A stretch of DNA of 54,624 bases, taken from assembly GCA_022843505.1 (NCBI GenBank), contig JALHNN010000001.1, positions 1-54,624 of the forward strand. The letters run 5' to 3'. The DNA comes from Sulfuritalea sp. (GTDB lineage: Bacteria; Pseudomonadota; Gammaproteobacteria; Burkholderiales; Rhodocyclaceae). This document shows, one piece after another, positions 8,400-53,652 of this stretch (position 1 is the stretch's first letter; each line of letters opens with the position of its first letter). The position numbers and the translations under genes were made by a program. Under the pieces are notes generated by a model. The model ran no database searches. It had not been told where the DNA came from and saw nothing but the letters and a program-made list of their open reading frames with translations.

Positions 8400-8818
8400 G
8401 AAATACGCACTTCGCTCGGGTGGCCATACTTTTGCCATACGGGCACTGGTTTGTCCCCTAATGGCTCTAGCACTTCGCGCAGTCGCTTCATGTCTTTCGA
8501 GTCCGCCACGCCTTCGTCGTAGGTCTGGCAGTAATTGTCGATGGATGCCCGGTATCGACCGATTTCCGCGTGAAGATGCGCCTTTTCTCGTTCGTCTTTG
8601 GCAATTGCTGCGTCCATTTTTTCAAGCGTCTGTATCGCGCGGAATAGCGTCAGCGTTACCGGGTGCTGATTTGCACGAAATTCGGCAGCCCACTCGCGGA
8701 GGTTATCCACAAGATAAGGCACGCCGAACAAGCGATCAGAGCCAACGCTGACAGCGGCTCCTTGGTTTTCGATAGTTGGATTTGTATTCATGGGTTGAGA
8801 GTAGTTCTGCGCTGTCAT
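8375..8818 (-). CDS. Cassette ORF, hypothetical
   Basis: Begins within attC ('VSVGSDRLFG'), ends 'PNTKLTS'. Confidence 0.75.
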   Translation of the reverse strand: MTAQNYSQPMNTNPTIENQGAAVSVGSDRLFGVPYLVDNLREWAAEFRANQHPVTLTLFRAIQTLEKMDAAIAKDEREKAHLHAEIGRYRASIDNYCQTYDEGVADSKDMKRLREVLEPLGDKPVPVWQKYGHPSEVRISPNTKLTS

Positions 8819-8842
8819 CGTGGCTCACTCGCAGGGTTCGGC
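8723..8842 (+). repeat. attC site
   Basis: GCCGAAC aagcgatca GAGCCAACGCTGACAGCG ... CGCTGTCATCGTGGCTCA ctcgcagg GTTCGGC. Confidence 0.92.
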
Positions 8843-9234
8843 GTAAGAAGAGCGCGAATGTCGTCGGCGTAGTCTGCCAGCCGCGCACCGCTCTTTGTGC
8901 GCTCGGCCTCTTCCAGCGCGTAGCGCAGTCGGTCGAAGTTGGGTGCCGTGCCAGTCATGCGCGCTTCGATGGCTCTCCATGTCGGCTCGTATTCAGGCCA
9001 GTCAGATTCGACCACCACGCATTGCAGTAGGCTCTTACCTTCGAGCTTCCGCCCACAGGCCACCGTGCTTCCGAGACTGCGGAGTTTGTCCCATTCCACA
9101 CGCGACAGGTGCTTGCGGGCGTCGCTGAGTTTGACGACGAAGTATCTCGGCTCGCGAGCGAACGCCGAACCCACGGCCACAGCACAACCGGCGCGCTCGT
9201 CCGGCTTGCGATCATTTTCAGTTGGATTTTGCAT
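8815..9234 (-). CDS. Cassette ORF, conserved phage protein ('FAREPRYFVVKLSD...CVVVESDWPEYEPTW')
   Basis: Widespread phage hypothetical motif; ends 'PNPASEPR'. Confidence 0.8.
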   Translation of the reverse strand: MQNPTENDRKPDERAGCAVAVGSAFAREPRYFVVKLSDARKHLSRVEWDKLRSLGSTVACGRKLEGKSLLQCVVVESDWPEYEPTWRAIEARMTGTAPNFDRLRYALEEAERTKSGARLADYADDIRALLTPNPASEPR

Positions 9235-9288
9235 AGAGTGTTGGCGCGGCTTTAGCCCCGCGCCGGTGGCTGATCCGAACCGTTAGCC
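9164..9288 (+). repeat. attC site
   Basis: GCCGAAC ccacggcca CAGCACAACCGGCGCG ... CGCGCCGGTGGCTGA tccgaacc GTTAGCC. Confidence 0.92.
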
Positions 9289-10059
9289 GAAAGACATCAT
9301 GCGTTGTTGCTGACGCTTGGCCGCAATTTCGCAGTATTCCTCGGAAAGTTCGATGCCGATGGCGTAGCGTCCGAGTTCTCGCGCGGCCTGTAGCGTGGTT
9401 CCGCTGCCCATGAACGGATCGAGCACCGTCATTCCTTCCACGCTCACGCTCGCCATGAGGCGTTTCCACGCGCCAAGCGGCTTCACGCACGGATGGCCGT
9501 TCTTCTCTGGTGTTTCCGTCAGCGTGTAGCTGCATGGTGTGCCGAAGTTCCGCTTCGTCGGGTTTTTGCCGTAGTAGAGGATCGGTTGCGCGTCGAGGTT
9601 GCCCCACGTTTGCAGCCCGACGGCTGCCGGTTGGTAGTAGCACCCGAAGCTGTCCGGCTGCGGATAGCGCATCATGTTCGTGTTCCCCGGCGTCACGACA
9701 GTTGGCCATTTGGCCACGCATCGGCGGATCACGTCCGCCACCACGTCGCGGATATATTCCGGCGTGTCATCGAAGTCGCTCGTGTAGTTTCCCCGCCCGC
9801 GGTTCGTGCTCATGCTGCCACGTCCGCCGTGGATGCCATAGGGCGGGTCAGTCATCACGAGATGGCACTTCATTTCGTCCAGCACTTCGCGGCAGTCCGC
9901 GTGATAGATGGCGCACCATTCATCACGGTAGTAGAGGCTCCTCGAAGAAAGACCGGCTAACCAGTCGCCAGAGCCAACGCCGACAGCGGCCCGAGGTTTC
10001 TCGGGAGTCTGTCCGGCGTCGGATGCCAGTTGAAATTTTGCGCTGTCGGCGTGGCTCAT
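9283..10059 (-). CDS. DNA N4-cytosine/N6-adenine methyltransferase (beta class), carried as a cassette
   Basis: 'TDPPYG' catalytic motif, 'HPCVKP', 'VLDPFMGSGTT', 'IGIELSEEYC'; stop TAA inside GTTAGCC box. Confidence 0.92.
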   Translation of the reverse strand: MSHADSAKFQLASDAGQTPEKPRAAVGVGSGDWLAGLSSRSLYYRDEWCAIYHADCREVLDEMKCHLVMTDPPYGIHGGRGSMSTNRGRGNYTSDFDDTPEYIRDVVADVIRRCVAKWPTVVTPGNTNMMRYPQPDSFGCYYQPAAVGLQTWGNLDAQPILYYGKNPTKRNFGTPCSYTLTETPEKNGHPCVKPLGAWKRLMASVSVEGMTVLDPFMGSGTTLQAARELGRYAIGIELSEEYCEIAAKRQQQRMMSFG

Positions 10060-10072
10060 CTAGGTGTTGGGC
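9955..10072 (+). repeat. attC site
   Basis: GGCTAAC cagtcgcca GAGCCAACGCCGACAGCG ... CGCTGTCGGCGTGGCTCA tctaggt GTTGGGC. Confidence 0.95.
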
Positions 10073-10302
10073 GAAGAGATGCCGTCGTTATCGGCGAGGT
10101 CTTGCACGAGCTGCTTGAGCAGCGAGGCAGGCACACGCACCGCGTCTGCGTGGTTCACTTTCAGCGTGATGTAGGCCAGCGGATTGTCGTCGAAGTATCC
10201 GCGACCCGAGTAGGATTTGGTGTAGGTGGTCGCTGTGGGCGCAGACGCGCCCAACCCGCCAGTCGAGCCAACGCTCACAGTCTGTCCTTTTTCGGTAGTC
10301 AT
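10060..10302 (-). CDS. Cassette ORF, hypothetical
   Basis: ATG 10302 with GGAG RBS in attC loop; ends 'SPNT*' directly before the MTase ATG. Confidence 0.7.
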   Translation of the reverse strand: MTTEKGQTVSVGSTGGLGASAPTATTYTKSYSGRGYFDDNPLAYITLKVNHADAVRVPASLLKQLVQDLADNDGISSPNT

Positions 10303-10359
10303 AATTACGCTCCGTCTTTTTTGGTGTTCGAGTGAGCGCGGCTCACTTCCATGTTCGGC
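10249..10359 (+). repeat. attC site
   Basis: GCCCAAC ccgccagtc GAGCCAACGCTCAC ... GTGAGCGCGGCTCA cttccat GTTCGGC. Confidence 0.92.
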
Positions 10360-10703
10360 AGAATCACGATGCTGTTCGAGATGCCGTCCCACGCGGCCAT
10401 CTGGTAGCCGCTGGCGTTGCCATCGATTTCACCGTCCACGATGTCGCGGAAGTGTGCGGCGATGTTCCACACCTTGTAGGCTGGAAAGTAGAAGGCGCGC
10501 AGCGGTTTCGCGTCCTTGAAGATTTCGATTAGCGCGTCCTGTTTGCGCGGCTCCTTGAGGTAGCTTGCGCGCACAGTGTAGCCGCGATCCGGTTCCTTGG
10601 ACTCGAAGGCAATCGAGTCGATCAAAGAGCCGAACGAGGGGCCAGACCCAACGAGCACAGCGGCTCCTTGGTCGGCGGTAGTGGGTTCTGTATTCGTGTC
10701 CAT
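10305..10703 (-). CDS. Cassette ORF, hypothetical
   Basis: MDTNTEP...'VLVGSGPSFG'...'PNMEVSRAHS'. Confidence 0.75.
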   Translation of the reverse strand: MDTNTEPTTADQGAAVLVGSGPSFGSLIDSIAFESKEPDRGYTVRASYLKEPRKQDALIEIFKDAKPLRAFYFPAYKVWNIAAHFRDIVDGEIDGNASGYQMAAWDGISNSIVILPNMEVSRAHSNTKKDGA

Positions 10704-10747
10704 AGAGTTATTTGCGCTGTGCTCGCGGGTCATCCCCGGTGTTGGGC
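10629..10747 (+). repeat. attC site
   Basis: GCCGAAC gaggggcca GACCCAACGAGCACAGCG ... CGCTGTGCTCGCGGGTCA tccccggt GTTGGGC. Confidence 0.92.
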
Positions 10748-10980
10748 CTCGTCCGCCGCAGGAGCCGACCATAGCCATGCAGGCGCTCTCCGACTGTGCA
10801 TGTGGCGGGGATTTTGCTCGGCCACCACATATCGCCGTGCCTTATGACCGTGCCGTTTTTCACAGGCTTCCAGCCTCGGGGGTAGTCGGGCGGACGAGGC
10901 CCAACCAGCCGACCACAGCGAACGCCCTTCATGCGGCCTTTCTTCGTGGATGGCGTTCTACGCTCGTGTGATGTTTTCAT
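10708..10980 (-). CDS. Cassette ORF, small basic hypothetical
   Basis: 'VRCGRLVGP' start-arm peptide, 'PNTGDDPR' end-arm peptide. Confidence 0.7.
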   Translation of the reverse strand: MKTSHERRTPSTKKGRMKGVRCGRLVGPRPPDYPRGWKPVKNGTVIRHGDMWWPSKIPATCTVGERLHGYGRLLRRTRPNTGDDPRAQRK

Positions 10981-11035
10981 AGTTCAAAGGGTTTCACGTC
11001 CGCCCTCGGGCGTCCGCTGATTCGGATTGTTAGCG
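10899..11035 (+). repeat. attC site
   Basis: GCCCAAC cagccgacca CAGCGAACGCCC ... GGGCGTCCGCTGA ttcggatt GTTAGCG. Confidence 0.9.
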
Positions 11036-11398
11036 AAGCCAGCGTGCGGTTGTGCCATCGCGCAGAGTGAGCGTGTCGCCGCACGACATGACGACTTCCC
11101 CTGATTCAAGTTCCACGCGCTCGCCGTTCGGCAGTTCTGCGCGGTATTTTCCGCCGTTCCACTTCGGAAGGTTTACTTGCTCCGGGTGCTCGATGTAGCC
11201 TACTGCCCACCAGTGGTGTCCGCCATCCGAGATTTCCATGAGCACGTTGTCGCTTATCGCGAAGTGCGAGAAGTCGGGTTGCTTGCCGTATCGCTGCACG
11301 ATTTCGAGGGCGAGCAGTTCTTCGGTAGTCTCGAACGGGACCGCTGTCGGATGGTCCACGTCGCAGAATGATGGGATGTGTTGTTTGAATGAGTTCAT
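11030..11398 (-). CDS. Cassette ORF, hypothetical (ORF open to 11485)
   Basis: MNSFKQHIPSFCD...; stop TAA inside GTTAGCG box. Confidence 0.75.
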   Translation of the reverse strand: MNSFKQHIPSFCDVDHPTAVPFETTEELLALEIVQRYGKQPDFSHFAISDNVLMEISDGGHHWWAVGYIEHPEQVNLPKWNGGKYRAELPNGERVELESGEVVMSCGDTLTLRDGTTARWLR

Positions 11399-11410
11399 AA
11401 GAATGAAAGA

Positions 11411-11499
11411 CGCTAACAAGCGATTAGAGACAACGCGGGGACTGGCCGCTTTCTGCATTCGGGGCCAGAGGGCCGCGTGTCTCACTCGCGATGTTCAGG
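11411..11499 (+). repeat. attC site
   Basis: CGCTAAC aagcgatta GAGACAACGCGG ... CCGCGTGTCTCA ctcgcgat GTTCAGG. Confidence 0.9.
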
Positions 11500-16323: not shown

Positions 16324-16661
16324 GCTGGCAACGATAGCGCGGCCTCGTCCCTGATCGACTTCAAAACGGCACTCATGGCGCGGGGCTTGCCGGAGCCGAG
16401 AAAGAACCGCCAGGCAAGGCCGTGGACGGAGGAATAGAAGGTGCGGGCGTCGTAACCGGCTTCGAACAGCAGCCGCCACCGCTCGGCGGCTGCGGGCGTA
16501 AGGACATACCCGGCGGGGGCGCGGGCCACGCGGGCGCGCAAAGCCCGGGCCAATCGTCCGGCGCGCTCCCGGTCGGCATCGCTGGTCTCATCGGACAGGG
16601 TGATAAGAATATGGGGCGCACTGCTGGGGAAGCGGCGTTGCTCGGTCAGGGTGAAGGGCAT
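16320..16661 (-). CDS. Hypothetical early protein
   Basis: 113 aa ORF in leftward run. Confidence 0.6.
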   Translation of the reverse strand: MPFTLTEQRRFPSSAPHILITLSDETSDADRERAGRLARALRARVARAPAGYVLTPAAAERWRLLFEAGYDARTFYSSVHGLAWRFFLGSGKPRAMSAVLKSIRDEAALSLPA

Positions 16662-16686
16662 GGCGATATGGAAAACGGGGGTTGGA

Positions 16687-16890
16687 CTAGTGCGTGTTGG
16701 CCGAATCAGTCGTCGCTAGTTCTGCTCGAATCTTGTCAGCGAGCTTTGCCGTTCCCGCCATCCGCATTCCGTAGTCGTCTAGCCAGTCTAGGGCTTTCCG
16801 AAGAAGTTCCTCCTTGCGGGATTCCCGAGATCGGCGGTTTCTTTCCTCCCGCCGCTCGATGGCGTCGTCGGTTGAGTTGTAGAATCTCAT
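16687..16890 (-). CDS. Hypothetical early protein
   Basis: MRFYNSTDD..., ATGA coupled. Confidence 0.5.
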   Translation of the reverse strand: MRFYNSTDDAIERREERNRRSRESRKEELLRKALDWLDDYGMRMAGTAKLADKIRAELATTDSANTH

Positions 16891-17203: not shown

Positions 17204-17644
17204 TCAGAAGCGTGGGTTAGGGTTCCAGTATTCGCACAGCATTGAGTCCGTGTCCTCGTTGGGATCTTCGGGGTCGGCAATGTCGCCGGCCTCGTGAAAC
17301 TTGGCCCCGTTCCGGATCATGTCTTCGACTTGGTTGACGTGGCGATAGTGGTTCGACTCGCCCAGGGGTGCCCCGGCGAGCAGCTCCCGGATTTCGTCGG
17401 CGATAAGTTCGCGCTCCAGTTGGGGCAGTCCGTCGAGCAAGCCGCTCGGCTCAAAGTCGCGCGCAACCGCCGTCAGATCGTAACTTGGCGTGAATTCGCA
17501 AAGGTGCGCGTGCAGATTGCGGTTGAATCCGTAAACGGTTTGCACGCTGGACAGGTAGGGCTTGAGCTTGTCCGGGATGGTCCAGTCGGACGTATCTTTG
17601 ATGCCGATGAAGCACCAGTTAGGGGCGGGGGTGGTGGTGTTCAT
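17204..17644 (-). CDS. Hypothetical early protein
   Basis: MNTTTPAPNWCFIG..., ATGA coupled. Confidence 0.65.
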   Translation of the reverse strand: MNTTTPAPNWCFIGIKDTSDWTIPDKLKPYLSSVQTVYGFNRNLHAHLCEFTPSYDLTAVARDFEPSGLLDGLPQLERELIADEIRELLAGAPLGESNHYRHVNQVEDMIRNGAKFHEAGDIADPEDPNEDTDSMLCEYWNPNPRF

Positions 17645-17967
17645 GGGTGGTCGGCCCCTCCGGCTTTGGCTATGGCGGTGCGGGCGGAGTCGATTGTGCG
17701 TTGAACGCATGTAGTATTAGTGCCATCATGGAATTGCCCGACGACAAGCGACAGCGTATCTTTCAGCGCAGCCAACAAATCGGGCGCGGCGGCAATGAGG
17801 CGGGCGTCGGCTTCGGCGTTCGCTTCCTTCACGATGCAGTGGTCATTCGCAGCTTCATCGGAATAGATTCCGAATTGAGGCGAGTGCTCCGGGGTGGCGT
17901 GCTTGCTTATTGCCCACGGCCCTGGCGTGTGTTCGGACGTATTGGAGTTGTTGATTAGGCTGTTCAT
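17641..17967 (-). CDS. 'TPGPW...ARLIAAAPDLL' family small phage protein
   Basis: HTPGPW, EADARLIAAAPDLLAALK, ARTAIAKA. Confidence 0.8.
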   Translation of the reverse strand: MNSLINNSNTSEHTPGPWAISKHATPEHSPQFGIYSDEAANDHCIVKEANAEADARLIAAAPDLLAALKDTLSLVVGQFHDGTNTTCVQRTIDSARTAIAKAGGADHP

Positions 17968-18023
17968 GATATGCGCGCGGTTCCGCAGTGGTTGGTGGTG
18001 ATGTTTGATTTTGATGGTCATGG

Positions 18024-22229: not shown

Positions 22230-22515
22230 TTTGTTACACTTTTTACACTTCCGTTCAGAGCGCCGCTTCCTGTTTTACAATTACTGATTAAACCGATTAA
22301 ATTGATTTTTCTCGTTAAACTGCAACGTTAAACCCCATTTAACCCCCTCCAGGGGGGGTTAAAAGAGTGGGGTTTAACGAAAAAAACAATCGATAGTTAA
22401 AAGAGGGGTTAAAAGAGTTTAAAGAGGGTACTAAAAATAAAGGAGAACAGCCTACGCGGGCTAATTTTTTGACCCTAGTTTGATGATAGGGGCGAAGCCC
22501 TATTGGCACTAGGGT
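22230..22515. other. Putative replication origin: AT-rich, inverted repeats, short direct repeats
   Basis: CGTTAAACCCCA...TGGGGTTTAACG hairpin (22326-22379), repeated TTAAAAGAG/TTAAAGAG, hairpin 22472-22515; ~200 bp downstream of the helicase gene. Confidence 0.55.
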
Positions 22516-25715: not shown

Positions 25716-25940
25716 TTAGGTTGATGGAACGGAATCCGTCTCGAAACCGTGCTCAGTCACGCGGCACCCCGATGGGTCAGTCAGAAGACCAAGCGCGGAC
25801 TCTGCTGCTTGCTTCGTGTGAAACCGGCACGCGCTGTTTGCGTCGAATGTCCAAGCGAGTAACCCCTCGTAGAAATTCACGTATACAGGGGCCGATATAG
25901 GCCCCGCCTCGATTAGCCACAGAAAGGCGGTAGTGCTCAT
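25716..25940 (-). CDS. IS passenger, small phage-type hypothetical ('WLIE...WT.D...A.RF...TEHGF')
   Basis: ATGA coupled; motif pattern. Confidence 0.7.
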   Translation of the reverse strand: MSTTAFLWLIEAGPISAPVYVNFYEGLLAWTFDANSACRFHTKQAAESALGLLTDPSGCRVTEHGFETDSVPST

Positions 25941-26230
25941 AGGTCTCTCGCTTTGGCAAGGGCTGCGCGGGCCGCCTGCCAGACTTCCTCGCCTCGCGAT
26001 GTGCGCCCCGTGTCCATCGTGTGAACCTCGAAATAGTTCGCCAGGGCATACAGTGCGGTATGCAGCTCGGGAGCGGCGGCAATGAGCTGCGCGTCGGGCG
26101 CGTGCTGAACGTGTGCGACGACAAAGTTATTGATCGAGCCGGGCGTTGGGTCCAAGGGCGACCAGACCTCAATAGCGAAACCGTCTTGGGCTTGAGTCCG
26201 CCACGGTCCTTTCGTGGGTTGGTCACTCAT
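25937..26230 (-). CDS. IS passenger, 'TPGPW...LIAAAPEL' family
   Basis: TKGPW...DAQLIAAAPEL...ARAALAKA. Confidence 0.8.
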   Translation of the reverse strand: MSDQPTKGPWRTQAQDGFAIEVWSPLDPTPGSINNFVVAHVQHAPDAQLIAAAPELHTALYALANYFEVHTMDTGRTSRGEEVWQAARAALAKARDL

Positions 26231-26547
26231 GACTGGCCCTCCGCCTTGGCGATTGCGTCGCGCAGAGCTTCCCACTCTAGATAAGAGGCAGGCTCTTTTG
26301 CCGGGTCAGGGATGCGATTACAGAACCCCTGAAACGCGAGGCGCGCAGCTTGCAGCAGGTCCGGAGCGGCGGAGATCAGTGAGGCATCGGCACGGTTGGC
26401 GGCGCGCGCCTCTTCGGACATGTCGCTCTGACAAACCGCTACCGTTGCATATGACTCACGAGCCTCAATGGCGATCAAGCGACCATCATGGAATACGTTG
26501 GCGGTCCACGGGGCTGGAGTGAATCTGGTGAATTTAGGTGTTTTCAT
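26227..26547 (-). CDS. IS passenger, 'TPGPW...LIAAAPDLL' family
   Basis: FTPAPW...ADASLISAAPDLL...RDAIAKAEG. Confidence 0.8.
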   Translation of the reverse strand: MKTPKFTRFTPAPWTANVFHDGRLIAIEARESYATVAVCQSDMSEEARAANRADASLISAAPDLLQAARLAFQGFCNRIPDPAKEPASYLEWEALRDAIAKAEGQS

Positions 26548-26559
26548 ACACACGAGACA

Positions 26560-26607
26560 GTGCACTGGGTGCACTGCATTGCAAGATAAATGTTGCACTC
26601 AGTGCAC
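26560..26607. promoter_or_regulatory. Two palindromic operator-like sites in a divergent intergenic region
   Basis: GTGCAC-tgg-GTGCAC (26560-26574) and TTGCAC-tca-GTGCAC (26593-26607). Confidence 0.6.
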
Positions 26608-26626: not shown

Positions 26627-26818
26627 ATGACCTTTGCTGAGAAGCTAAAGCCGTGGACGGCGAATAAGCTGATGGAAGTGATCGGCGTTCCGCGCCGAAC
26701 GGCTTATGCGTGGAAATCTGGCGAGAAGATCGCACCCGGTTGGGTGCAGGCGCTCGTCCTCTTCCGACTGAAATACGTGAAACCCGACAATGCTGAACCT
26801 CGACGCGCTGAAGGTTGA
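26627..26818 (+). CDS. Small Cro-like HTH protein overlapping the transposase start
   Basis: 'ANKLMEVIGVPRRTAYAWKSG...P..WVQ'. Confidence 0.7.
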   Translation: MTFAEKLKPWTANKLMEVIGVPRRTAYAWKSGEKIAPGWVQALVLFRLKYVKPDNAEPRRAEG

Positions 26819-28091
26819 TTCCCGCGCTGAGGTTGGAGCTACGGATTACGTCTTCACCGTCCGGGTGGATGACGCTCCCGATCCGTGCTGTCCTCAGCCA
26901 CTCGTCCGCAACGGCAACAAGCCCGTCGCCTACCGCGACCTGCCGATGCACGGCCGGCATGTGACGATCCGTGTTGAACGGCAGCGATACCTTTGCCGAT
27001 CGTGCGGCAAAACTCGCTACGTCGCCGTTCCGCACATGAACGAGACGAACATGATGACCCAACGGCTCGTCGAATACATCATCACGCGATCCATGGAAAC
27101 GCAGTTCACTGCGCTCTCCCGCGAGTTGGGCGTGGATGAAGGCACCGTGCGTCGCATCTTCCGTCGCTTCGCCAAGGTCCAATTGGAGCGGCTGAACATC
27201 GAGACGCCTGAAGTCATGGGCATCGACGAAATCCACATGCTGAGCCGCTACCGTGGCGTGATTACCAACGTGAAAGAACGGACGCTCGTCGATCTGTTGG
27301 AGACGCGTAACAAGCCCGCCATCATCAAATATCTCTCCGAGCTGAAGAATAAGGAGCGCGTTCAGGTCGTGGCGATGGACATGTGGAATCCATACCGCGA
27401 TGCCGTCCGGGAGATACTGCCCAAGGCTCGCATCGTCGTGGACAAGTTCCACGTCGTGCGAATGGCCAACGAGGGAATGGAACGTATCCGCAAGGAGCTT
27501 CGCCTGACCTTGCCTACCAAGACCCGGCTTCAGCTCAAAGACGATCGCTGGATACTGCTCCGCAATAAGGAGGACTTGCCCGCCTTCAAACGGATGATCG
27601 CGGAGACGTGGTTCGACCGCTTCCCCGACCTCAAGTCCGGCTACGACGCCAAAGAGGCGTTCCGCGCCATCTGGACCGCCGCCACTGCCGACGAGGCGCG
27701 AGACCGCTATGACAAGTGGCTGGATGGTCTCGACGAGACCTGTCAGGCCGCGTTCGCCGACCTCATCACGGCTATGTGCAACTGGCGGGAGGAAATCTTC
27801 GCCTACTTCGATCTGCGGGTCACGAACGCATACACCGAAGCAATCAACGGCATCGCTCGAATAGTAAACCGCGCCGGTCGCGGCTACTCTTTCGAGGTGC
27901 TCCGCGCCAAGATGCTGCTCAATTACGCCAACCACCGCATGGTGTGGGGCGGCGGTATGGCCATCCGCCGGAAGCTCGGCATAACGCTCCCATTGGCGCT
28001 TGGCGTGCCGTATTGGAAGCTCCAACACCCCGAGAAGATGAAGCTCCATCAACCTCGGATACTGGACGAGAATTGGCTGTCCGATTTTTAG
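26790..28091 (+). CDS. ISL3-family DDE transposase
   Basis: zf 'RYLCRSCGKT', HTH, 'MGIDE', 'VAMDMWNPY', 'VVDKFHV', 'TNAYTEAING...RGYSFEVLRAK'. Confidence 0.95.
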   Translation: MLNLDALKVDSRAEVGATDYVFTVRVDDAPDPCCPQPLVRNGNKPVAYRDLPMHGRHVTIRVERQRYLCRSCGKTRYVAVPHMNETNMMTQRLVEYIITRSMETQFTALSRELGVDEGTVRRIFRRFAKVQLERLNIETPEVMGIDEIHMLSRYRGVITNVKERTLVDLLETRNKPAIIKYLSELKNKERVQVVAMDMWNPYRDAVREILPKARIVVDKFHVVRMANEGMERIRKELRLTLPTKTRLQLKDDRWILLRNKEDLPAFKRMIAETWFDRFPDLKSGYDAKEAFRAIWTAATADEARDRYDKWLDGLDETCQAAFADLITAMCNWREEIFAYFDLRVTNAYTEAINGIARIVNRAGRGYSFEVLRAKMLLNYANHRMVWGGGMAIRRKLGITLPLALGVPYWKLQHPEKMKLHQPRILDENWLSDF

Positions 28092-28858: not shown

Positions 28859-29077
28859 ATGACCAAACCCGACAAACAATACCTCCCGATCCACGGGGAA
28901 AAAATCCGCGAGGCCCGCATTTGCGCCGGTCTGACGGTGCGGCAGCTGGCCGCGGGACTCGGCAAGGGGACGAAGGCCGTTTACCTGTGGGAGAACGGGG
29001 AAAGCTACCCGCGCCTCCCCGACTACTTTCGCCTGTGCAGGCTGCTTGGCTGCGGGCGCGCACCCTTTGGGCCATGA
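28859..29077 (+). CDS. XRE-family HTH regulator
   Basis: 'GEKIREARICAGLTVRQLAAGLG...VYLWENGESYP'. Confidence 0.85.
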   Translation: MTKPDKQYLPIHGEKIREARICAGLTVRQLAAGLGKGTKAVYLWENGESYPRLPDYFRLCRLLGCGRAPFGP

Positions 29078-29403
29078 CGAATACTGACACTTCGCGGTCC
29101 TCACAATCTGCGCCGGAGCGTGGCGCGTCCGATGGCCCGAGTTGCGCTGGGGCGGCGGGTTCGGCAATTCAGCCCGGCTCGACCGTCGCCTTCAAAGGCG
29201 AAGACGTGCAAGGCACCGTATCGCGGGTGAGAAACGGTCAAGCCTTCGTGAACTGGATAGGCTTCCGATATTCGCCGGCCTATGATGGGTGGCACCACGT
29301 CTCAAAACTCAGACTCTTGCCGAACGTCGCCAGTGAGCCACGGGCGAAGCCCGTTGGCTCTGATGGCTGGTTGGACTCCGAACCCTCGACCCACGAACAA
29401 TGA
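29074..29403 (+). CDS. Anchor cassette ORF (SH3/KOW-like 'IQPGSTVAF...GTV')
   Basis: ATGA-coupled to the HTH; half-site GTTGCGCTG gggcggcgg GTTCGGC at ~29141-29165. Confidence 0.7.
   Translation: MTNTDTSRSSQSAPERGASDGPSCAGAAGSAIQPGSTVAFKGEDVQGTVSRVRNGQAFVNWIGFRYSPAYDGWHHVSKLRLLPNVASEPRAKPVGSDGWLDSEPSTHEQ
29319..29376 (-). repeat. attC site (58 bp)
   Basis: plus: GCCGAAC gtcgccag TGAGCCACGGGC gaa GCCCGTTGGCTC tgatggctg GTTGGAC. Confidence 0.95.
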
Positions 29404-30290
29404 AAAACTCCAGCATCGAATGGACGACGCACACTTTCAATCCGTGGATCGGATGCTCGAAAGTCTCACCAGGCTGCGCACACTGCTACGCCGAAACGCT
29501 CAACAAGCGCATGGCCTGGACGCAGTGGGGTGACGCTGGCGAACGCTTCCGCACCTCTCCGCACAACTGGAATGAGCCGCGCCGCTGGCACCGCGAGGCA
29601 ACCAAGTCCGGCCAGCGCGCCCGCGTCTTTTGCGCGAGCCTCGCTGACTGGCTCGACCCGCGCGCCCCCGTGGCTTGGCTCGCCGAACTGCTCTCACTCG
29701 TGAAGGAGACGCCAAACCTCGACTGGCTATTTCTCACGAAAAGGCCGCAACTCTGGCGCGACCGAATGGCTGCTGTCGTCGGAATGCACATGAGCGATGG
29801 GCCGGCCGCGGTCGATCAATGCTCTGGTGCTGCGCTCGCGGCGGCATGGCTGAACGGTGCAGCGCCGCTGAACGTGTGGATTGGGACAAGTGTCGAGGAT
29901 CAGGATCGTGCCGACGAACGCATTCCTCATCTGCTCGATATTCCGGCGCGGATTCGATTTCTGAGCTGTGAGCCGCTGCTTGGTCCGCTCGACCTCAGCG
30001 ACTACACCGATCCAATCGACGGCGGTTATGTGGGTCGGTCATTCATCGACTGGATTATCGTTGGCGGCGAGAGCGGTCCCAAGGCGCGCCCGATGGAAGC
30101 GGATTGGGTGAGGTCGCTGCGCGAAGAGTGCGAAGTGAATGGCGCGGCTTTCTTCTTCAAGCAGTGGGGCGGAGTGCGAAAGAAGGAAGCCGGACGGATT
30201 CTCGACGGCGAGACATTCGATCAACTGCCAACCGTCGCCGAGGAGTCCAACAACCCGGTCAGCGGCGCGGCGAAGCCGCGTTCGCTGTAG
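29400..30290 (+). CDS. Phage Gp37/Gp68 (DUF5131) family protein, carried as a cassette
   Basis: 'SIEWT..TFNPWIGCSKVSPGCAHCYAE', 'LTKRP', 'FLSCEPLLG', 'VGGESG', 'FFFKQWGG'. Confidence 0.93.
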   Translation: MKNSSIEWTTHTFNPWIGCSKVSPGCAHCYAETLNKRMAWTQWGDAGERFRTSPHNWNEPRRWHREATKSGQRARVFCASLADWLDPRAPVAWLAELLSLVKETPNLDWLFLTKRPQLWRDRMAAVVGMHMSDGPAAVDQCSGAALAAAWLNGAAPLNVWIGTSVEDQDRADERIPHLLDIPARIRFLSCEPLLGPLDLSDYTDPIDGGYVGRSFIDWIIVGGESGPKARPMEADWVRSLREECEVNGAAFFFKQWGGVRKKEAGRILDGETFDQLPTVAEESNNPVSGAAKPRSL

Positions 30291-30304
30291 TGGATTGGTT
30301 CAGC
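30245..30304 (-). repeat. attC site (60 bp)
   Basis: plus: GTCCAAC aacccgg TCAGCGGCGCGGC gaa GCCGCGTTCGCTG tagtggattg GTTCAGC. Confidence 0.95.
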
Positions 30305-30312
30305 TCTTTCTA

Positions 30313-30588
30313 ATGAACACGCGAAACATAATCTTGAGTGGAATCGGCTATCGCATGACAGAAATAGACGGCCAACTCATCTTTGAGGAGGTCGGAGGAA
30401 TCTATGGGGTAACAAACCGCTTCACCCTCGAATGGCTAGGCACCGGATGGTATCTCGTGGATTTCGAGCACAGCTTCGGACACGTCCGGCTCTCGCACAT
30501 CAGCGCAGCGGAAAAGTGGGTCCGCGAGAACTACACCACCGAATACAAAGACGGCACAGGAACGGTGAAGCTGAACAGGCCGAGCTGA
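30313..30588 (+). CDS. Cassette ORF, hypothetical
   Basis: MNTRNIILSG...KLNRPS*. Confidence 0.75.
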   Translation: MNTRNIILSGIGYRMTEIDGQLIFEEVGGIYGVTNRFTLEWLGTGWYLVDFEHSFGHVRLSHISAAEKWVRENYTTEYKDGTGTVKLNRPS

Positions 30589-30642
30589 GGAGCGGAGATG
30601 CAATTTATGAATAGCAAGCAAAACGAGAATCCGTCGCCTCTG
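30570..30642 (-). repeat. Collapsed attC plus emptied cassette
   Basis: GCTGAAC aggccgagc TGAGGAGCGGA ... TCCGTCGCCTC runs directly into the next site; leaves mini-ORF 30607-30654 MNSKQNENPSPLANK. Confidence 0.6.
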
Positions 30643-30753
30643 GCGAACAAATAGTTCAGCCGCGAGGCCGCGAATTTCACCTATGAAAAGCACACGGAAA
30701 AGACTTACGAAAAAGGACAGCCCGGCCTCGTTGGCTGGAACGGCGGGTTCGCC
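30642..30753 (-). repeat. attC site
   Basis: plus: GGCGAAC aaatagt TCAGCCGCGAGGCCG ... CGGCCTCGTTGGCTG gaacggcgg GTTCGCC; ATG 30683 in loop. Confidence 0.9.
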
Positions 30754-31117
30754 TCTTTTGCTTTCAGCGCACGCCGTCCAGAATCCCGATGTGGGGCATG
30801 GCTGGCAACTCGACCTGAAATGCGGCGCTCCGCAACTGGTGATCTACCATGTGTGGACTATCGGGACATACAAAAACGGGCACCCGATGTTCGATCTTCG
30901 GGCTGTGACTACCGACAGTCTCAAGGCAAAAGAATATTCGAAGATGCTCCGCCGCGACAAGGAGGCGAATAGAGAAACGTGGTATCGCGTCCACATCGAG
31001 CCGCGTGTGGCAAACCACCTCTACGGTGAGTGTATGCGCGAATTTCGAGAAGCCACCGGACGCTTGGCGAACAACCCAGTCAGACACGAAGGGGCGCAGC
31101 CCCGGAGTTGTCTGTAG
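30683..31117 (+). CDS. Cassette ORF, hypothetical
   Basis: 'ASLAGTAGS' start-arm peptide; 'ANNPVRH' end-arm peptide. Confidence 0.75.
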   Translation: MKSTRKRLTKKDSPASLAGTAGSPLLLSAHAVQNPDVGHGWQLDLKCGAPQLVIYHVWTIGTYKNGHPMFDLRAVTTDSLKAKEYSKMLRRDKEANRETWYRVHIEPRVANHLYGECMREFREATGRLANNPVRHEGAQPRSCL

Positions 31118-31131
31118 TGGACTGGTTCGCA
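31066..31131 (-). repeat. attC site
   Basis: plus: GGCGAAC aacccag TCAGACAC gaaggggcgcagccccgga GTTGTCTG tagtggactg GTTCGCA. Confidence 0.88.
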
Positions 31132-31135
31132 CTTT

Positions 31136-31438
31136 ATGGACATCGGAACTAAAATCATCGACGAGATCGTGAAGCAGGGAATGTTCTGCGTGAACTATCC
31201 TGACCCAGAAGCCGCGCACGTCTTTGTGTGGTCATCGGGGGCGGCGGAACAACTCCACGCCATCGTTTGCGAATCCGGCGAGGTGCAAATCCCGCGCCGA
31301 GAGGCCGCGCTCTACGGCCAAGCCCTGCAACTCTTGGGCGCACCCGACAACGGCAATCCTGCCGAGCTGCTGGAATGGGCCGAGAAAACAGGGAAGCGCC
31401 TTTGTGCGAACGTTACGGCTCAGCCACGCGACCTATGA
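31136..31438 (+). CDS. Cassette ORF, hypothetical
   Basis: MDIGTKII...ANVTAQPRDL*. Confidence 0.75.
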   Translation: MDIGTKIIDEIVKQGMFCVNYPDPEAAHVFVWSSGAAEQLHAIVCESGEVQIPRREAALYGQALQLLGAPDNGNPAELLEWAEKTGKRLCANVTAQPRDL

Positions 31439-31492
31439 GCAACATACCTGAAGACACGTTCCCTCGCGTTGAGCTGGGGCCGGTGGTTGGGG
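31405..31492 (-). repeat. attC site
   Basis: plus: TGCGAAC gttacggc TCAGCCACGCG ... CGCGTTGAGCTG gggccggtg GTTGGGG; ATGA overlap in loop. Confidence 0.88.
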
Positions 31493-31692
31493 GCCGCTCG
31501 AAGCCGCTGAGCGACACCCAACTGCTGGACTGGATTGAGAACAATCCCGGACGGGTTCTGCACGCCAAAGGCTACCATGGGTCTCGCGATTCGTGGGGAT
31601 GGACAGAGCGCGGCGACTGGCGTGAAGCGAAATCCCTGCGCCATGCAGTGCTGGCAGCTATCGCGTCCTATGAAAAACAGACAGGCCCCTAA
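31435..31692 (+). CDS. Cassette ORF ('DTQLLDWIE...SLRHAVLAAI' family)
   Basis: Paralog of 7698-7991; stop TAA inside CCCTAAC box. Confidence 0.75.
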   Translation: MSNIPEDTFPRVELGPVVGGRSKPLSDTQLLDWIENNPGRVLHAKGYHGSRDSWGWTERGDWREAKSLRHAVLAAIASYEKQTGP

Positions 31693-31876
31693 CAATGGAG
31701 ATGTGCCGACGAGCGGCACGAACGGAGAATAATTTATGCCCGTCGAAATCACAAAAATAGAAACCGACAAAGACGACCAACTGGTCATCCATGTGCGAGG
31801 CACCGGAGGCTTGAGCGCAGAAGCAACACCCGGATCAGTCGCCACGCCGCTCGTTGGCACTGGCTCGTGGTTGGGC
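31687..31876 (-). repeat. attC site (190 bp, long coding loop)
   Basis: plus: CCCTAAC aatggagat GTGCCGACGAGCGGC ... GCCGCTCGTTGGCAC tggctcgtg GTTGGGC; GGAG RBS and ATG 31736 in loop. Confidence 0.88.
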
Positions 31877-32062
31877 TCCGGTGCCGAATCGGCGAAGTCT
31901 TTGATCGAGCACTGGGAGACGCGCGCCGACTACCGACGCGGGCGCGGCTGGGATGACTCCGCGATGGCCTTCCAATACTGCGCAAACCAGCTCCGGGCGG
32001 CAATCGGCCTGCCCGAACGTCGCCAGCCGGAGCCCAACAGAACCGATGAGCCACACGGATAA
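31736..32062 (+). CDS. Cassette ORF, hypothetical
   Basis: 'LVGTGSWLG' arm peptide; ends 'PNRTDEPHG'. Confidence 0.75.
   Translation: MPVEITKIETDKDDQLVIHVRGTGGLSAEATPGSVATPLVGTGSWLGSGAESAKSLIEHWETRADYRRGRGWDDSAMAFQYCANQLRAAIGLPERRQPEPNRTDEPHG
32032..32054 (-). repeat. attC half-site, array 2 right boundary
   Basis: plus: GCCCAAC agaaccga TGAGCCAC; partner arm not found. Confidence 0.65.
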
Positions 32063-32183
32063 ATCAGCAGCGCACCAGTCCGAACGCCCGCCCGTTTCTC
32101 GATCCACGAAACGCTATTTGGCAAGTCCGTCTCCCCAACCCTCGCCGGCCGCAAGATAACGACCCTCCTGCTTAATTACCGAC

Positions 32184-32432
32184 ATGTCCCAACCTTACAC
32201 GCCGCCACCGTCAAAGCTGACTGTCGCTGACCTTCCGCTTGGGTGGCTTCCGGCGCTCCAAGAGATTGTTGTGCGCCATGGCACCAAGCTTCGCCCGTCT
32301 CCCGTGCGCCCAAGCATCGAGGCGTGGTCAGTCGGTCGCGCTTGCTGGTGCGAAATCATGCTGCCGGGTGGCGGCTACCTGTTTGAGAACGACGCCGAGC
32401 GGGACTTGGCAATGAGGGCGCTGGATGTTTGA
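32184..32432 (+). CDS. Hypothetical protein
   Basis: 82 aa ORF overlapping helicase start. Confidence 0.6.
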   Translation: MSQPYTPPPSKLTVADLPLGWLPALQEIVVRHGTKLRPSPVRPSIEAWSVGRACWCEIMLPGGGYLFENDAERDLAMRALDV

Positions 32433-34269
32433 CGATGTAATATCCGTGGATATTTGCGACGCGCCGGCCGATGGGCGCCTGAACATCACTCTGCGCGGGC
32501 ATCAGCCGGCATGGGTCGAGAAGGTCGAACGCGACCTGGAGACCCATTCCCGCCTGCTTTTCGTGGCCCCCGGAGGTATCGGGAAGTCAACCGTCTTCGC
32601 CGCTCTCGCTGCCAGGCAGCACGCACGCGGAGGACGCACGCTCGTTCTCGCCAATCGAGACCGGCTTGTCCGGCAAACGGCCGGACGCATCGCCAGCGAA
32701 ACCGGGGTCCATGTCGAGATGGAGATGGGAAAGGAGCGGGCCGGTCTCTACGCACCCATCGTGGTGGCCTCGGTTCAGACCCTCGGGAGGGTGGACCGCC
32801 TGCTGGGGTTTCCGCCGGACCACTTCGACTTGGTGGTGGCGGACGAGTGCCACCTGTCGCTTGCCCCCCAGTCCATGCGCGTGCTGAATTACTTTCATTA
32901 CGGAGCGGACAGCCTGACCGATGGATGGAGTCGCCCCAAGGACGGGGATTACATTTCCTTGTCCCCCGTCGTCGGATTCACCGCAACGCCCAACATCGGG
33001 AAGACCCGTAACCTGGGGGAATTCTTCCATCACCGGACGGTCAATTATTCCTACCTCCATGCCGTCGAGGACGGGTGGCTCGTTTCGCCGACCGAAATCA
33101 ACATCCCGGTCAAGGTGGATGTGAGGAGCCAGCGGACCGCCAAGACCCCGCATGGACTGGACTTCAATCCAAAGGGGCTTGGGAAGGCGCTCATTCCCAT
33201 CATCGACCGGCTGGCTGAACAGATCGTGGAGCACGCCAGCGACCGCAAGACGATGGCGTTCGTGCCATCTGTCGAGTGCGCCAGGCTCCTGAGCGATGCG
33301 CTCGTTCGGCTCGGAATGTGGAGCGTGTTCGTCAGCGGTGAATGCCTGGACCGTAACGAGAAAACGGAGGCGTTCGTCGAGCGCGGAGCCGGCTCCGTCT
33401 TGGTGAACTGCGCGTTGTATAATTACGGGATAGATTTTCCTGACGTAGATTGCATTGCGTGGTTCCGGCCGACTATCAGCACCGCTTTTTACATTCAGGG
33501 CATCTATCGGGCCTCCCGTGTCCTCCCGGGGGTAATAGACGGACTGGAGACTGCCGAGGAGCGCATCGCAGCCATTGCCGCCAGCGCCAAACCCAACTTC
33601 CTGATTCTCTCCCCGTTCTTCGTGTCCGACCGCATTGACCTGTGCAACCCTTACGACCTGTTCACCGATCAGCCCGAGGTAAAGAAGGCCATGGCCGAGT
33701 CAGGGGAACTGAGCGTTGAATCCGCCAAGCGGGCCGAACGTGACTTTCTGAAGGCCATGGAGAAGGAGGCGGCCAAGCACGCCGCCCGGGAGGCGAGAGC
33801 CATTGACCCCTTGGCGTGGTCCGTCTTCGTCGGTGAGACAAAGGTGTTGAACTACGCCCCGTCCACGCCATCCGAGGCCAAGCCCCCATCGCCCGAGGAA
33901 ATTGAGTTTATCCGCAACGCCGGGATGAACCCCCAAGTCATCACCTGTTCAGGTCAGGCCCAACAGATCATCAAGGTGATGCTAGCCAGGCAGGAGATGA
34001 AGCTGGCCTACCCGAAGCAGATCAAGGAACTGCGGAGGATCACCGCGCAGGAGCGATGCGCCTACCTGCTGCGCGTGGTTGCCCCGGAAATCGCCGAAGC
34101 CTCGCGTCACTTGCCGCTGCTGGAACGACTTAATTACCTGACGGCGAACGCACCGCAGGAGCAACTGGACTTTCTGCCCCGGATCGGGTTCAGCGATTCC
34201 AAGCTTATGACAATGGGCCGGGGGCAGGCCGGGATAATTATCAGCCGGGCGAGCCAGCGGCACTACTAG
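32425..34269 (+). CDS. Superfamily 2 (DEAD/DEAH) helicase
   Basis: 'LRGHQ', 'APGGIGKS', 'VADECH', 'GFTATP', 'YGIDFPDVDC...YIQGIYRASR'. Confidence 0.92.
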   Translation: MFDDVISVDICDAPADGRLNITLRGHQPAWVEKVERDLETHSRLLFVAPGGIGKSTVFAALAARQHARGGRTLVLANRDRLVRQTAGRIASETGVHVEMEMGKERAGLYAPIVVASVQTLGRVDRLLGFPPDHFDLVVADECHLSLAPQSMRVLNYFHYGADSLTDGWSRPKDGDYISLSPVVGFTATPNIGKTRNLGEFFHHRTVNYSYLHAVEDGWLVSPTEINIPVKVDVRSQRTAKTPHGLDFNPKGLGKALIPIIDRLAEQIVEHASDRKTMAFVPSVECARLLSDALVRLGMWSVFVSGECLDRNEKTEAFVERGAGSVLVNCALYNYGIDFPDVDCIAWFRPTISTAFYIQGIYRASRVLPGVIDGLETAEERIAAIAASAKPNFLILSPFFVSDRIDLCNPYDLFTDQPEVKKAMAESGELSVESAKRAERDFLKAMEKEAAKHAAREARAIDPLAWSVFVGETKVLNYAPSTPSEAKPPSPEEIEFIRNAGMNPQVITCSGQAQQIIKVMLARQEMKLAYPKQIKELRRITAQERCAYLLRVVAPEIAEASRHLPLLERLNYLTANAPQEQLDFLPRIGFSDSKLMTMGRGQAGIIISRASQRHY

Positions 34270-34805
34270 CGGTTATCCTTAAGCAGCCGGTCCCGCATCA
34301 GCGCCTTCACGTTCTCGTCAATCCGCGCCTGAGTGAGCCGCATTTCATCGAGGATCTTGGCCATTTCCCGGATGGCAGAATCGTTGGCGTCCTGCCTTTT
34401 ATCAATTGAAGCCACCCGCACCTGCGTAGAGCGGGAAAGCTCCGAACCCTCACGATCCATGCGTGCCAGCCGGGCCTCGTGGATTTCCACGGCCCGGGTG
34501 ATCGTCACGAGGCTCCTTTCCAATCCGGCATATTGTCCTGATACTGCCGCCACCTGGATAGAGATAGGCGCCACCGCCTTGGCCGTTTCGCTGCCGACAA
34601 ACGCAGCTCCACCGTAAAGGATGGCCGACATGCCGCCCACCGTCAGGAACATCAGGATCATGGAAAGAATCCTGAACAGCATGGTCCAGTCCCGGCCTTG
34701 CGAACCCATCGGCGCGTCGCTTTGCGCGTTGGCGGACTGGGCAATTACGGCACCCATGCCCTGCGCGCCAATCGGGGCATCCCTGTCTGTGTTCTTGGGT
34801 GGCAT
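34266..34805 (-). CDS. Membrane-anchored coiled-coil protein (lysis-module like)
   Basis: One TM segment followed by coiled coil. Confidence 0.55.
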   Translation of the reverse strand: MPPKNTDRDAPIGAQGMGAVIAQSANAQSDAPMGSQGRDWTMLFRILSMILMFLTVGGMSAILYGGAAFVGSETAKAVAPISIQVAAVSGQYAGLERSLVTITRAVEIHEARLARMDREGSELSRSTQVRVASIDKRQDANDSAIREMAKILDEMRLTQARIDENVKALMRDRLLKDNR

Positions 34806-34828
34806 GGCAGGCTTATCGGATTACGCGA

Positions 34829-35089
34829 CTACTTGGCTTTGAGGTCAATAGTAGCCTTTGTGACCCAGTAGCCGTTGTATTGGCCGTGCAGCTCACCGCT
34901 GACCCATTTGCCGTCCCTCTTTTCCCCGCTCCCCTTGAGCGAAGCCGAGGTGAACTTGGCCGCATATCCCACCTCGATGTATTCCCAGTTCCCATTTGGA
35001 ATCTGGGCGTCGAGCTTCTGGATCGGATTGGTGGCGCATCCGGAAAGGAAGGCACAGGACAGGGCGACGATGACAGGTTTGTGTTTCAT
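34829..35089 (-). CDS. Small lipoprotein (spanin-like position)
   Basis: Lipobox 'FLSGC'. Confidence 0.7.
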   Translation of the reverse strand: MKHKPVIVALSCAFLSGCATNPIQKLDAQIPNGNWEYIEVGYAAKFTSASLKGSGEKRDGKWVSGELHGQYNGYWVTKATIDLKAK

Positions 35090-52153: not shown

Positions 52154-53652
52154 TGCTGGCGAATTTCAATGGCGATGAGTTCTGCGTCGCCGGTCATGGT
52201 GTCGCTGCCGCTTGTGGCGTTGCGGGTTAATTTCACGCGAAACAGGTCTCCGGCAACCAGACCCCCGATCTGGGCTCCGGAGTGATTGATGGTGGTCACG
52301 GTGATTATTCCGCTCGTTCCGTTCGCCGGAGCCGGAGCGGAATCAATTCCCGCAGCAAAATTGTCGCTGTTTAGGTTGCTTCCGTTGCACCGCTCGAAAG
52401 CCGTCGTCCAGACGACATTGCCGCTCGTGGCGGTTGATGCCATCCACATGATGCGAACCGACAGCCCTGTGGTGAAGTCCGCACCGTCCGGGATTGTCCC
52501 GACGAAAACGGCGCTCTCATTGGTGTCCGCATCGTAGTCGAGAAGGGCAATCGAGTTTCGCGTGTCAAAGGTGGAAAAGGTCGCTGCGGGGGGTTGATTG
52601 TCCAAAGGCGTGAATCGCGCCAGCGTGAGGCTGCCAGCACCGCTATCCGTCCCCCACGCCGCTACGCCGCTAGAAACTTTCAGCACCTGTCCTTCGGTCC
52701 CAATGCCAAGTCTTTCCGGGGTGCCCGATGCCGCGCCCCTGATGATGTCCCCAAGCGTGGTCATGGGATTGGTCATGCCGCCGCTATCGGTGTCCCACGC
52801 GAGCGCGCCTCCCACGACCTTCAGCACTTGTCCGTTGGTCCCAATAGCGAGTCTTTCCGGAGTGCCCGATGCGCCGCCCTTGATCACGTCTCCCGCCGTG
52901 GTCATGGGATTAGTCATTCCAGAGGAGGCAGCCGTCCATGCAATAGTCGTTGCCGTGGACGCCAGCACCTGTCCGGTCGTGCCGCGTGGAAGGCGCGTCC
53001 AAACGGTTGCATTGCGATACAGCAGATCGCCCTCAGCCGAGGAACCCGGAACGCCGATTACATCGGTGCCGGGTACCAGAGACAGCTGGGTTCTCATGGC
53101 AGAATAGTCGGCCGCACCAAGAAAGCTCTGCGTGTTGGCGGAAGGAGTGATGCCGGCAAAGATGGTGAGATTGGAACTGAGCGGCTGGAAATCCCCGGCC
53201 AGTCCCTCCTTGGTCGTGCTCACAAGCCGCCACCGGGAGGCCGTGCCGTCGTAAAGAACCGACACGCCGGCCCCCGCCGGAATCGTATAGCTCCCTCCGA
53301 TGGCGAATCGGTTGGCAGCGGCGCTGGAGGAACTCTCGTTGGCGAGTATGATCGGCTGTGCCCCGACGTTGGATAGGACCAGTGAGCGGCCCGCCGGGGT
53401 CGTGCCGGCGGCGATGCCGGTGATCGTGCGCGAGGCGTCAGAACTGAGGCGAAGGAGAAGTGCGGTAGCCAGCCCGGTTGGGTTGTAGTCGTTGACGCTG
53501 GCAGTGATCTGATCGGGCGTGATTGAACCGGTTGAGGCTGAACCGATGCGAACGGACCTCTGCACGTTGAGATCGCTGATCAATTGCTGGGCCGACAGGG
53601 GGACGCCAAAACACAGGATCGCTGCCAGGGTGATAATGATTCTGTTGTGCAT
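52150..53652 (-). CDS. Tail-fibre-like repeat protein with signal peptide
   Basis: Repeats 'NPMTT.GD.I.G.ASGTPERL.IGT.GQVLKV..G..AW'; N-term MHNRIIITLAAILCFGVPLSA-Q. Confidence 0.75.
   Translation of the reverse strand: MHNRIIITLAAILCFGVPLSAQQLISDLNVQRSVRIGSASTGSITPDQITASVNDYNPTGLATALLLRLSSDASRTITGIAAGTTPAGRSLVLSNVGAQPIILANESSSSAAANRFAIGGSYTIPAGAGVSVLYDGTASRWRLVSTTKEGLAGDFQPLSSNLTIFAGITPSANTQSFLGAADYSAMRTQLSLVPGTDVIGVPGSSAEGDLLYRNATVWTRLPRGTTGQVLASTATTIAWTAASSGMTNPMTTAGDVIKGGASGTPERLAIGTNGQVLKVVGGALAWDTDSGGMTNPMTTLGDIIRGAASGTPERLGIGTEGQVLKVSSGVAAWGTDSGAGSLTLARFTPLDNQPPAATFSTFDTRNSIALLDYDADTNESAVFVGTIPDGADFTTGLSVRIMWMASTATSGNVVWTTAFERCNGSNLNSDNFAAGIDSAPAPANGTSGIITVTTINHSGAQIGGLVAGDLFRVKLTRNATSGSDTMTGDAELIAIEIRQQ

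Follow-up and report, generated by a model that had tools for sequence, protein, structure and literature searches.

A tailed-phage array of integron-type cassettes whose genes run against the polarity of their attC sites

We analyzed a 54,624-nucleotide stretch of DNA, referred to here as the window, that forms positions 1 to 54,624 of contig JALHNN010000001.1 in GenBank assembly GCA_022843505.1 (labelled Sulfuritalea sp.), and within it a run of seven short genes and hairpin sites at 29074 to 32062 on the plus strand, called array 2. The window is tailed-phage sequence, with PHROG matches to helicases, nucleases, a methyltransferase, and virion proteins; it is contig C1 of a 597-contig bin, in which contig C177 is a second piece of the same phage. 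Judged from its sequence, array 2 is a real and well-supported variant of an integron cassette array. The reading that we hold to be probable is that it consists of cassettes of the Opitutales/Verrucomicrobiota integron family, with genes that are strand-reversed, likely shuffled by an integron integrase (IntI) supplied from outside the phage. This reading builds on the sites themselves, their polarity, a frame rule that links sites to genes, and the turnover of cassettes between related phages.

An earlier note on this DNA had described genes on the plus strand, attC polarity on the minus strand, and seven boundary pairs running from 29159/29317 to 31870/32027. All seven pairs are present at these positions, six as perfect inverted repeats of 9, 10, 8, 7, 8, and 12 bases and the seventh as 10 bases with one G-T mismatch. 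At positions 4 to 10, beyond the shared GTT and AAC, the true partners pair at 40 of 49 positions, while permuting the cassette ends gave a mean of 22 and reached 40 in 1 of 5,040 permutations. The array thus has the AAC/GTT box pair with ends of the RYYYAAC/GTTRRRY type that pair within one cassette; position 4 of the ends is often off the R/Y consensus, as it also is in Opitutales sites. The layout drawn from these pairs had to be amended in two respects: the gap at 30576-30747 contains both a collapsed and a full site, and the first and last elements are half-sites. Altogether, array 2 contains six full attC-type sites, one collapsed site, and two half-sites.

The full sites are, in order, 58, 60, 112, 66, 88, and 190 bases long, so that the compact 58- to 60-base form with a GAA loop that had been described fits two of the six and not the four of 66, 88, 112, and 190 bases. 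They have the parts of an attC hairpin, namely, an imperfect single-strand hairpin with an L box, an unpaired spacer, and a variable terminal part. Extrahelical bases, which mark the bottom strand, are usually G and then T; here the right arm on the plus strand has two bulges, both T, like chromosomal sites that adjoin IntI. When each site was rebuilt with its own cassette's end, the outer box closed in all six and the energy dropped in five. Compared with shuffled sequences, four of the five sites of up to 112 bases folded better (z scores of -2.7 to -3.3), and site 5 (31405-31492) folded no better (z of +0.7). A simple hairpin detector gave 13 matches in the window and 0 to 7 in 20 Markov controls; this detector is weak alone, and the strength of the case comes from the clustering, the chained ends, and the covariance model described below. 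With six full sites of one orientation within 2.6 kb, and no integrase nearby in the window or C177, array 2 has the makeup of a cluster of attC sites lacking an integron integrase (CALIN; at least two close attC sites in one orientation) and not that of a complete integron, which includes intI.

Using the right arm of the phage sites as a search pattern, we found at least 148 matching stretches across bacterial genomes. The stretches that have several matches lie in Verrucomicrobiota records (Opitutaceae, Horticoccus, Nibricoccus, and others) and in one contig labelled Paceibacterota, and they are long, regular arrays, chromosomal in Verrucomicrobiota. IntI scored above the TIGR02249 cut-off in three of five such genomes and, in the two genomes checked, adjoins an AT-rich simple site and the first cassette. 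The Paceibacterota-labelled contig (9 kb, loci L240-L243) carries an Opitutales-type array with 15 pattern matches and is likely mis-binned or transferred. A broad left-arm pattern returned mostly chance loci, and only loci with chained sites were used from it. We built a covariance model from 39 bacterial sites, those of up to 110 bases among 50 non-redundant ones; 91.5% of the alignment cells pair, and 14 of 20 pairs changed on both sides, in an alignment that was itself fitted to the structure. On the window plus C177 (60.8 kb), this model gave 22 matches, 20 of them at E ≤ 0.05: six in array 2 (E of 9e-11 to 0.05, all on the plus strand), ten in a second array in the window (array 1), and four in a third on C177 (array 3). 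The remaining two are weak reverse-strand matches on the same sites, and nothing was matched outside the three arrays. In the attC modelling that the earlier note had proposed as a check, the model matches all six sites; four of the five sites compared with shuffles fold above them. The rest of the bin gave no site of the phage family outside the phage contigs (150 of 3,186 candidates scored). Given that the phage sites match the Verrucomicrobiota attC family, the host is likely an Opitutales-type bacterium.

The proposed polarity, with attC sites pointing opposite to the genes, was borne out by the site model and by strand counts. With all sites set in one orientation, the gene strand among bacterial cassettes (n = 91) was opposite in 64, the same in 4, and tied in 23; among viral ones (n = 105, from 28 loci that include the cassettes of this phage, with at least one cassette called on both strands), it was the same in 44, opposite in 9, and tied in 52. 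A start codon in the loop of the upstream site followed by an open frame through the cassette was seen in 59 of the 105 viral cassettes and in none of the 91 bacterial ones. Array 2 therefore departs from the classical cassette, a top-strand gene followed by its attC: its genes are on the bottom strand, each with its site in front. IntI cuts the bottom strand within AAC, according to Nivina et al. (2016, PMC5027507), and in array 2 the bottom strand of the sites is the coding strand.

These counts bear on whether the phage acquired the array from a host integron in a single capture, a view that we regard as largely refuted and very improbable. It would account for sites that belong to the host family, and such events are described for Vibrio phages in PMC9892861. 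However, genes in host cassettes point the other way and the host sites contain no start codon, and the phage sites are varied where those of one chromosome are near-identical. The genes have phage homologues, many of them outside cassettes, and no cassette is held in common with the bacterial loci compared. The suggestion that this is not a captured host fragment was thus upheld, on gene orientation and on the phage type of the genes.

The genes also meet the sites in a fixed frame. In array 2, six of the genes read in frame through AAC, and the other, gene 6, ends at TAAC. Of the 59 loop-started viral genes, 51 read through AAC, 5 stop at TAAC, and 3 stop earlier; all 51 read-through genes cross AAC in frame, and 50 stop within the next site. 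The frame at GTT is free (17/26/16 over the 59). In 38 of 58 sites (18 of them as ATGA), the AAC-frame stop falls at -12 to +11 of the start that the site itself carries, compared with 12 and 14 sites in the other two frames. From these frame counts we infer that the recombination joint is at AAC and that each site may couple translation with whichever gene lies upstream. The clustering of stops at the next start, along with the fact that the mRNA would include the hairpin, could also suggest that the hairpins act chiefly in RNA, in translational coupling or processing, and that the cassette look is a by-product. This seems to us hardly credible, since it leaves unexplained the pairing of ends 160 to 880 bases apart, the match to chromosomal attC, and the attI-like ends and adjoining IntI genes of other phages.

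Turnover was examined in related phages. The HTH (helix-turn-helix) protein that flanks array 2 on the left was not found in the complete related phages G001 and G002, so the endonuclease and helicase served as reference points for comparing the interval. It is variable, as had been predicted, and holds a single array with other cassettes or an empty site. In G001 and G002, homology ends at the AAC behind the endonuclease, the cassettes between the breakpoints are wholly different, and homology resumes at an AAC that has an AT-rich simple site behind it; a third relative, L416, has no array there (an empty site). One array 1 cassette recurs in phage L401, identical from the AAC of the upstream site on and with different neighbours on both sides. 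The 5' end of the Gp37/Gp68 cassette of array 2 recurs in L026 and L049 (2 of 80 loci), with compact sites and other upstream genes. Homologues of gene 4 change their tail right after the Asn of AAC, those of gene 5 have five different tails beyond the corresponding Asn, and other homologues lack such ends; a viral scan with the gene 4 alignment found nothing. Units thus occur in varied neighbourhoods with breaks at the core site, as in classical cassettes. Movement between arrays, which the earlier note had asked about, was not seen: no cassette is common to array 2 and arrays 1 or 3.

Several findings weigh against cassettes that are moved by an external IntI. We found no recombinase in the window or C177 (61 kb, with about 6 kb of the phage not covered) and no tyrosine recombinase in G001 and G002, and array 2 has no clear attI-like anchor after its right half-site. 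The first extrahelical base is T instead of the usual G. A pattern derived from the phage sites served to find the bacterial ones, which makes the model not fully independent. Joint travel of a cassette with its upstream site is clear in only one of three scored pairs; in the other two pairs and in the Gp37/Gp68 trio, the upstream sites are at background likeness. L026 and L049 are 98% alike in the core and 75% in the site, a contrast that also fits exchange at GTT or site conversion. As the site body differs here while the gene is near-identical, sites would seem to be exchanged or converted apart from genes as well. The site family is the one pointer to the host, and the bin's own bacterium shows no such site. 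Last, no excised circle and no excision joint at any site was found in assembled contigs from two DNA sequencing runs of one study, possibly the source of this assembly, although contigs drop rare forms; among the runs listed as containing this sequence there was none of RNA.

An explanation that draws on several of these points is that the cassettes were formerly moved by an integrase and are now mostly frozen, with exchange by homologous recombination at similar hairpin arms through phage genes. The half-sites at both ends, the collapsed site, the 61 kb that yielded no recombinase gene, the site bodies that vary apart from genes in some pairs, and an exonuclease and endonuclease module upstream of array 1 would all suit it. 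We nevertheless consider it unlikely, because the breaks fall at AAC, with few shared bases, and not within the conserved arms, because pairing has been kept by the two-sided changes (in the structure-fitted alignment), and because the two ends of each cassette still pair.

For integron-type cassettes shuffled from outside, an enzyme would have to be available, and we found integrases in both the host family and phages, so that either could supply it. Other phages of the same site family have intI beside the array. Many phage arrays terminate in a simple site resembling bacterial attI, as does array 1 (at about 7287-7302). Behind 3 of 13 such ends stands a complete recombinase gene that has the insertion specific to IntI together with the catalytic residues. 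The three recombinases score 312, 271, and 213 bits, two of them above the cut-off of 265. IntI-like recombinases stand directly behind attI-like sites of reversed arrays at L106:1645-2595, L400:4366-5322, L109:395-1366, and L162 at about 3260-4290; these four loci are complete phage integrons in which cassette genes and intI run in the same direction. A recombinase tree, in which the L162 row was in the wrong frame, gave no resolved origin for the phage IntIs. The bin's own IntI, on contig C282, was set aside as the enzyme: its gene is broken off directly behind the codon for the catalytic Tyr, and the 150 candidates scored in the bin gave no site of this family outside the phage contigs. This gene (L017) is interrupted by a block of three tyrosine recombinase genes, presumably a RIT-like (recombinase-in-trio) element, and an attI-like site and first cassette lie upstream of the cut integrase.

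Array 1 (7287-11499, minus strand) has ten sites and the same layout as array 2 and includes a methyltransferase cassette; one of its cassettes (7300-7571, minus strand) ends in GTC/GAC instead of GTT/AAC, and these ends still pair over seven bases. Array 3 (L016, C177 positions 2600-4200, minus strand) has four sites and lies between glycosyltransferase-like genes, with a capsid-like gene downstream. One of its sites is similar to compact sites 2 and 4 of array 2. With this third array, and with oppositely oriented clusters in three of five other phage records, the idea of several arrays per phage gained support. The claim that arrays 1 and 2 are two independent loci is only partly right; as argued it was not supported, and the two need not be independent, since three relatives have one slot between endonuclease and helicase. 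A 38-base element that begins with an AAC occurs at 16661-16698 of the window, where it stands alone in the early region, and at 2606-2643 of L016, where it ends array 3, with a partial echo at 32071-32083. It is possibly an empty insertion site of another type and had no further match in viral contigs or the collected loci.

We consider it a little short of an even chance that arrays 1 and 2 are one ancestral array split by inversion of the early region, about 22 kb. Their opposite orientation would then be accidental and no sign of a second independent system; this concerns origin and is compatible with the cassette mechanism. The gene order exonuclease, endonuclease, array or empty site, 82-amino-acid gene, and helicase lies on one strand in G001, G002, and L416, while here the endonuclease heads array 1 on the minus strand and the helicase ends array 2 on the plus strand. 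These split flanks, together with an early block that is reversed relative to the structural genes, suggest that an inversion may have divided one array. Array 2 also starts with a half-site, and an ISL3 transposase lies 1 kb away. Speaking against an inversion, array 1 has an attI-like end site of its own, no breakpoint repeat exceeds 13 bases, a third array stands among structural genes, clusters on both strands are found in those three of five other records, and the relatives have only the early module in common. The intact ISL3-family transposase gene (26790-28091) is inserted against the early-gene direction, near the possible breakpoint.

Recombination, the enzyme, translational coupling, and expression enter our model by deduction. 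The mobile unit would begin with the C of one AAC and end with the AA of the following one, so that the hairpin precedes its gene and travels along with it, and an integrase from the host or a co-infecting phage would act on it. Long hairpin loops carry the gene's start codon and first codons. Since the upstream gene reads through AAC in frame and ends close to that start, any cassette order should remain a coupled operon, read under the phage's own transcription, with ribosomes that enter the left arm opening the mRNA hairpin. On a broader scale, we think the chances about equal for and against Verrucomicrobiota phages having their own integron economy. In it, pooled reversed cassettes would use attC as a stop-start coupler, be exchanged by host or phage IntI through several attI-like or attC targets per genome, and be silent in a host integron; this phage would be an integrase-less user with three arrays.

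Along the plus strand, array 2 follows the gene for a Cro/CI-like HTH protein (28859-29077; Pfam HTH_3, E of 2.5e-8), the 3' end of which overlaps the start of gene 1. The left half-site (29074-29165) has kept the right arm and GTT and contains the gene 1 start; it gave no model match and no fold above shuffles, and because the AAC arm is lost, cassette 1 is likely fixed. Gene 1 (29074-29403, 109 amino acids) spans all of site 1 and stops in an ATGA overlap with gene 2. Site 1 (29319-29376; GAA loop, 51.3 bits, z of -3.25) would have the plus strand as its bottom, recombining strand, with the predicted joint between AA and C at 29324/29325. Gene 2 (29400-30290, 296 amino acids; cassette unit 29325-30250) is the Gp37/Gp68 gene already recognized as a cassette, identified here as DUF5131, and its stop lies in site 2 (30245-30304; GAA loop, 23.8 bits, z of -2.71). 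Gene 3 (30313-30588, 91 amino acids; unit 30251-30575) runs into the collapsed site (30570-30648), which has kept both inner arms and a start codon and lost the right outer box and gene body, likely by deletion across TGGCG; it has no covariance model match. Site 3 (30642-30753; 34.8 bits, z of -2.82) holds in its loop the start codon of gene 4 (30683-31117, 144 amino acids, a phage family; unit 30648-31071), and site 4 (31066-31131; 20.9 bits) precedes gene 5 (31136-31438, 100 amino acids; unit 31072-31410). A near-identical piece of site 4 (31077-31119) occurs in both sequencing runs on other contigs of different depth, which could represent the host integron or else a sister phage from this community. 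In the loop of site 5 (37.4 bits), the gene 5 stop and gene 6 start overlap as ATGA. Gene 6 (31435-31692, 85 amino acids; unit 31411-31692) stops at the TAA of TAAC, and the loop of the long-stemmed site 6 (31687-31876; 16.7 bits, E of 0.05) holds the start and first 45 or so codons of gene 7 (31736-32062, 108 amino acids; unit 31693-32037). The right half-site (32032-32062) consists of AAC and the left arm only, and the conserved 82-amino-acid gene and superfamily-2 helicase that follow (32184-34269) are kept in relatives. PHROG and Pfam gave no family for six of the seven genes. Excision should be possible for cassettes 2 to 6, each of which lies between full sites; cassettes 1 and 7 adjoin half-sites.

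In the contigs of the two runs, one 60,076-base record spans window positions 31080-35000 plus all of C177, a 6.8-kb record of equal depth reaches up to window position 31106, and C177 sits about 18 bases left of window base 1. These record coordinates suggest a circle of about 67 kb (window, a gap of about 6 kb, C177, and back to window base 1), of which window and C177 cover about 61 kb; no contig for the remainder was found among the 10 bin contigs most phage-like in composition. The bin bacterium looks betaproteobacterial in its RecA and IntI sequences, so that the phage is probably mis-binned. Elsewhere in the window, a long AT-rich inverted repeat with short tandem units at 22290-22420, downstream of the primase-helicase gene, is likely the replication origin. 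Three paralogous small PHROG 1273 genes lie in the early region (17641-18021, 25937-26275, and 26227-26598), and a tail-fibre-like gene (52676-52917) contains two internal 101-base repeats that are 82% alike. Rfam found no family in the window, and a promoter scan gave no excess over shuffles.

If our reading is true, phages use integron recombination with a cassette design of their own, and part of the mosaicism of phage genomes, usually ascribed to illegitimate recombination, would have a site-specific route. The array would offer attC sites that code for protein in nature and obey a strict frame rule, which previously were made by design only. The sites would also account for the odd terminal peptides on many small phage proteins and hint at the group of hosts to which this uncultured phage, probably mis-binned, belongs. 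Our literature search, which most subscription papers lay outside, turned up no report of phage cassettes that are reversed and protein-coding. Functional attC sites in phage CALINs have already been published: in Qi et al. (2023, PMC9892861), phage CALINs are, like array 2, attC arrays without an integrase gene, one has a methyltransferase cassette, as array 1 does, and five of six tested phage attC sites recombined with IntI1. Those arrays resemble bacterial ones (one with divergent sites), unlike the reversed layout here. The main text, as far as it was seen, has no genes opposite to sites, loop starts, frame rule, or multi-array genomes; its supplement on 17 CALINs may show orientation.

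The closest relatives of these sites are in the sedentary integrons of Opitutales/Verrucomicrobiota (Horticoccus sp. 23ND18S-11, L296-L300, and L382), which share site sequence, structure, box spacing, the bulged T, and the attI-like anchor. They differ in having top-strand genes, non-coding and near-identical sites, and an adjoining IntI, whereas the phage sites vary in length and code for peptides. In the reverse insertion by top-strand recombination of PMC5027507, a gene likewise stands against the usual direction, but site and gene flip together, as a rare error that by that account has never been observed in integrons; in array 2 the sites all have one polarity and the gene is reversed inside its cassette. 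In the Treponema integrons of Cury et al. (2016, PMC4889954), the orientation is also unusual, with the integrase gene inverted there and the cassette genes inverted in array 2. The synthetic coding attC sites of Nivina et al. (2020, PMC7439510) similarly combine hairpin and reading frame in one sequence; those sites were engineered, whereas the phage sites are natural and contain start and stop signals.

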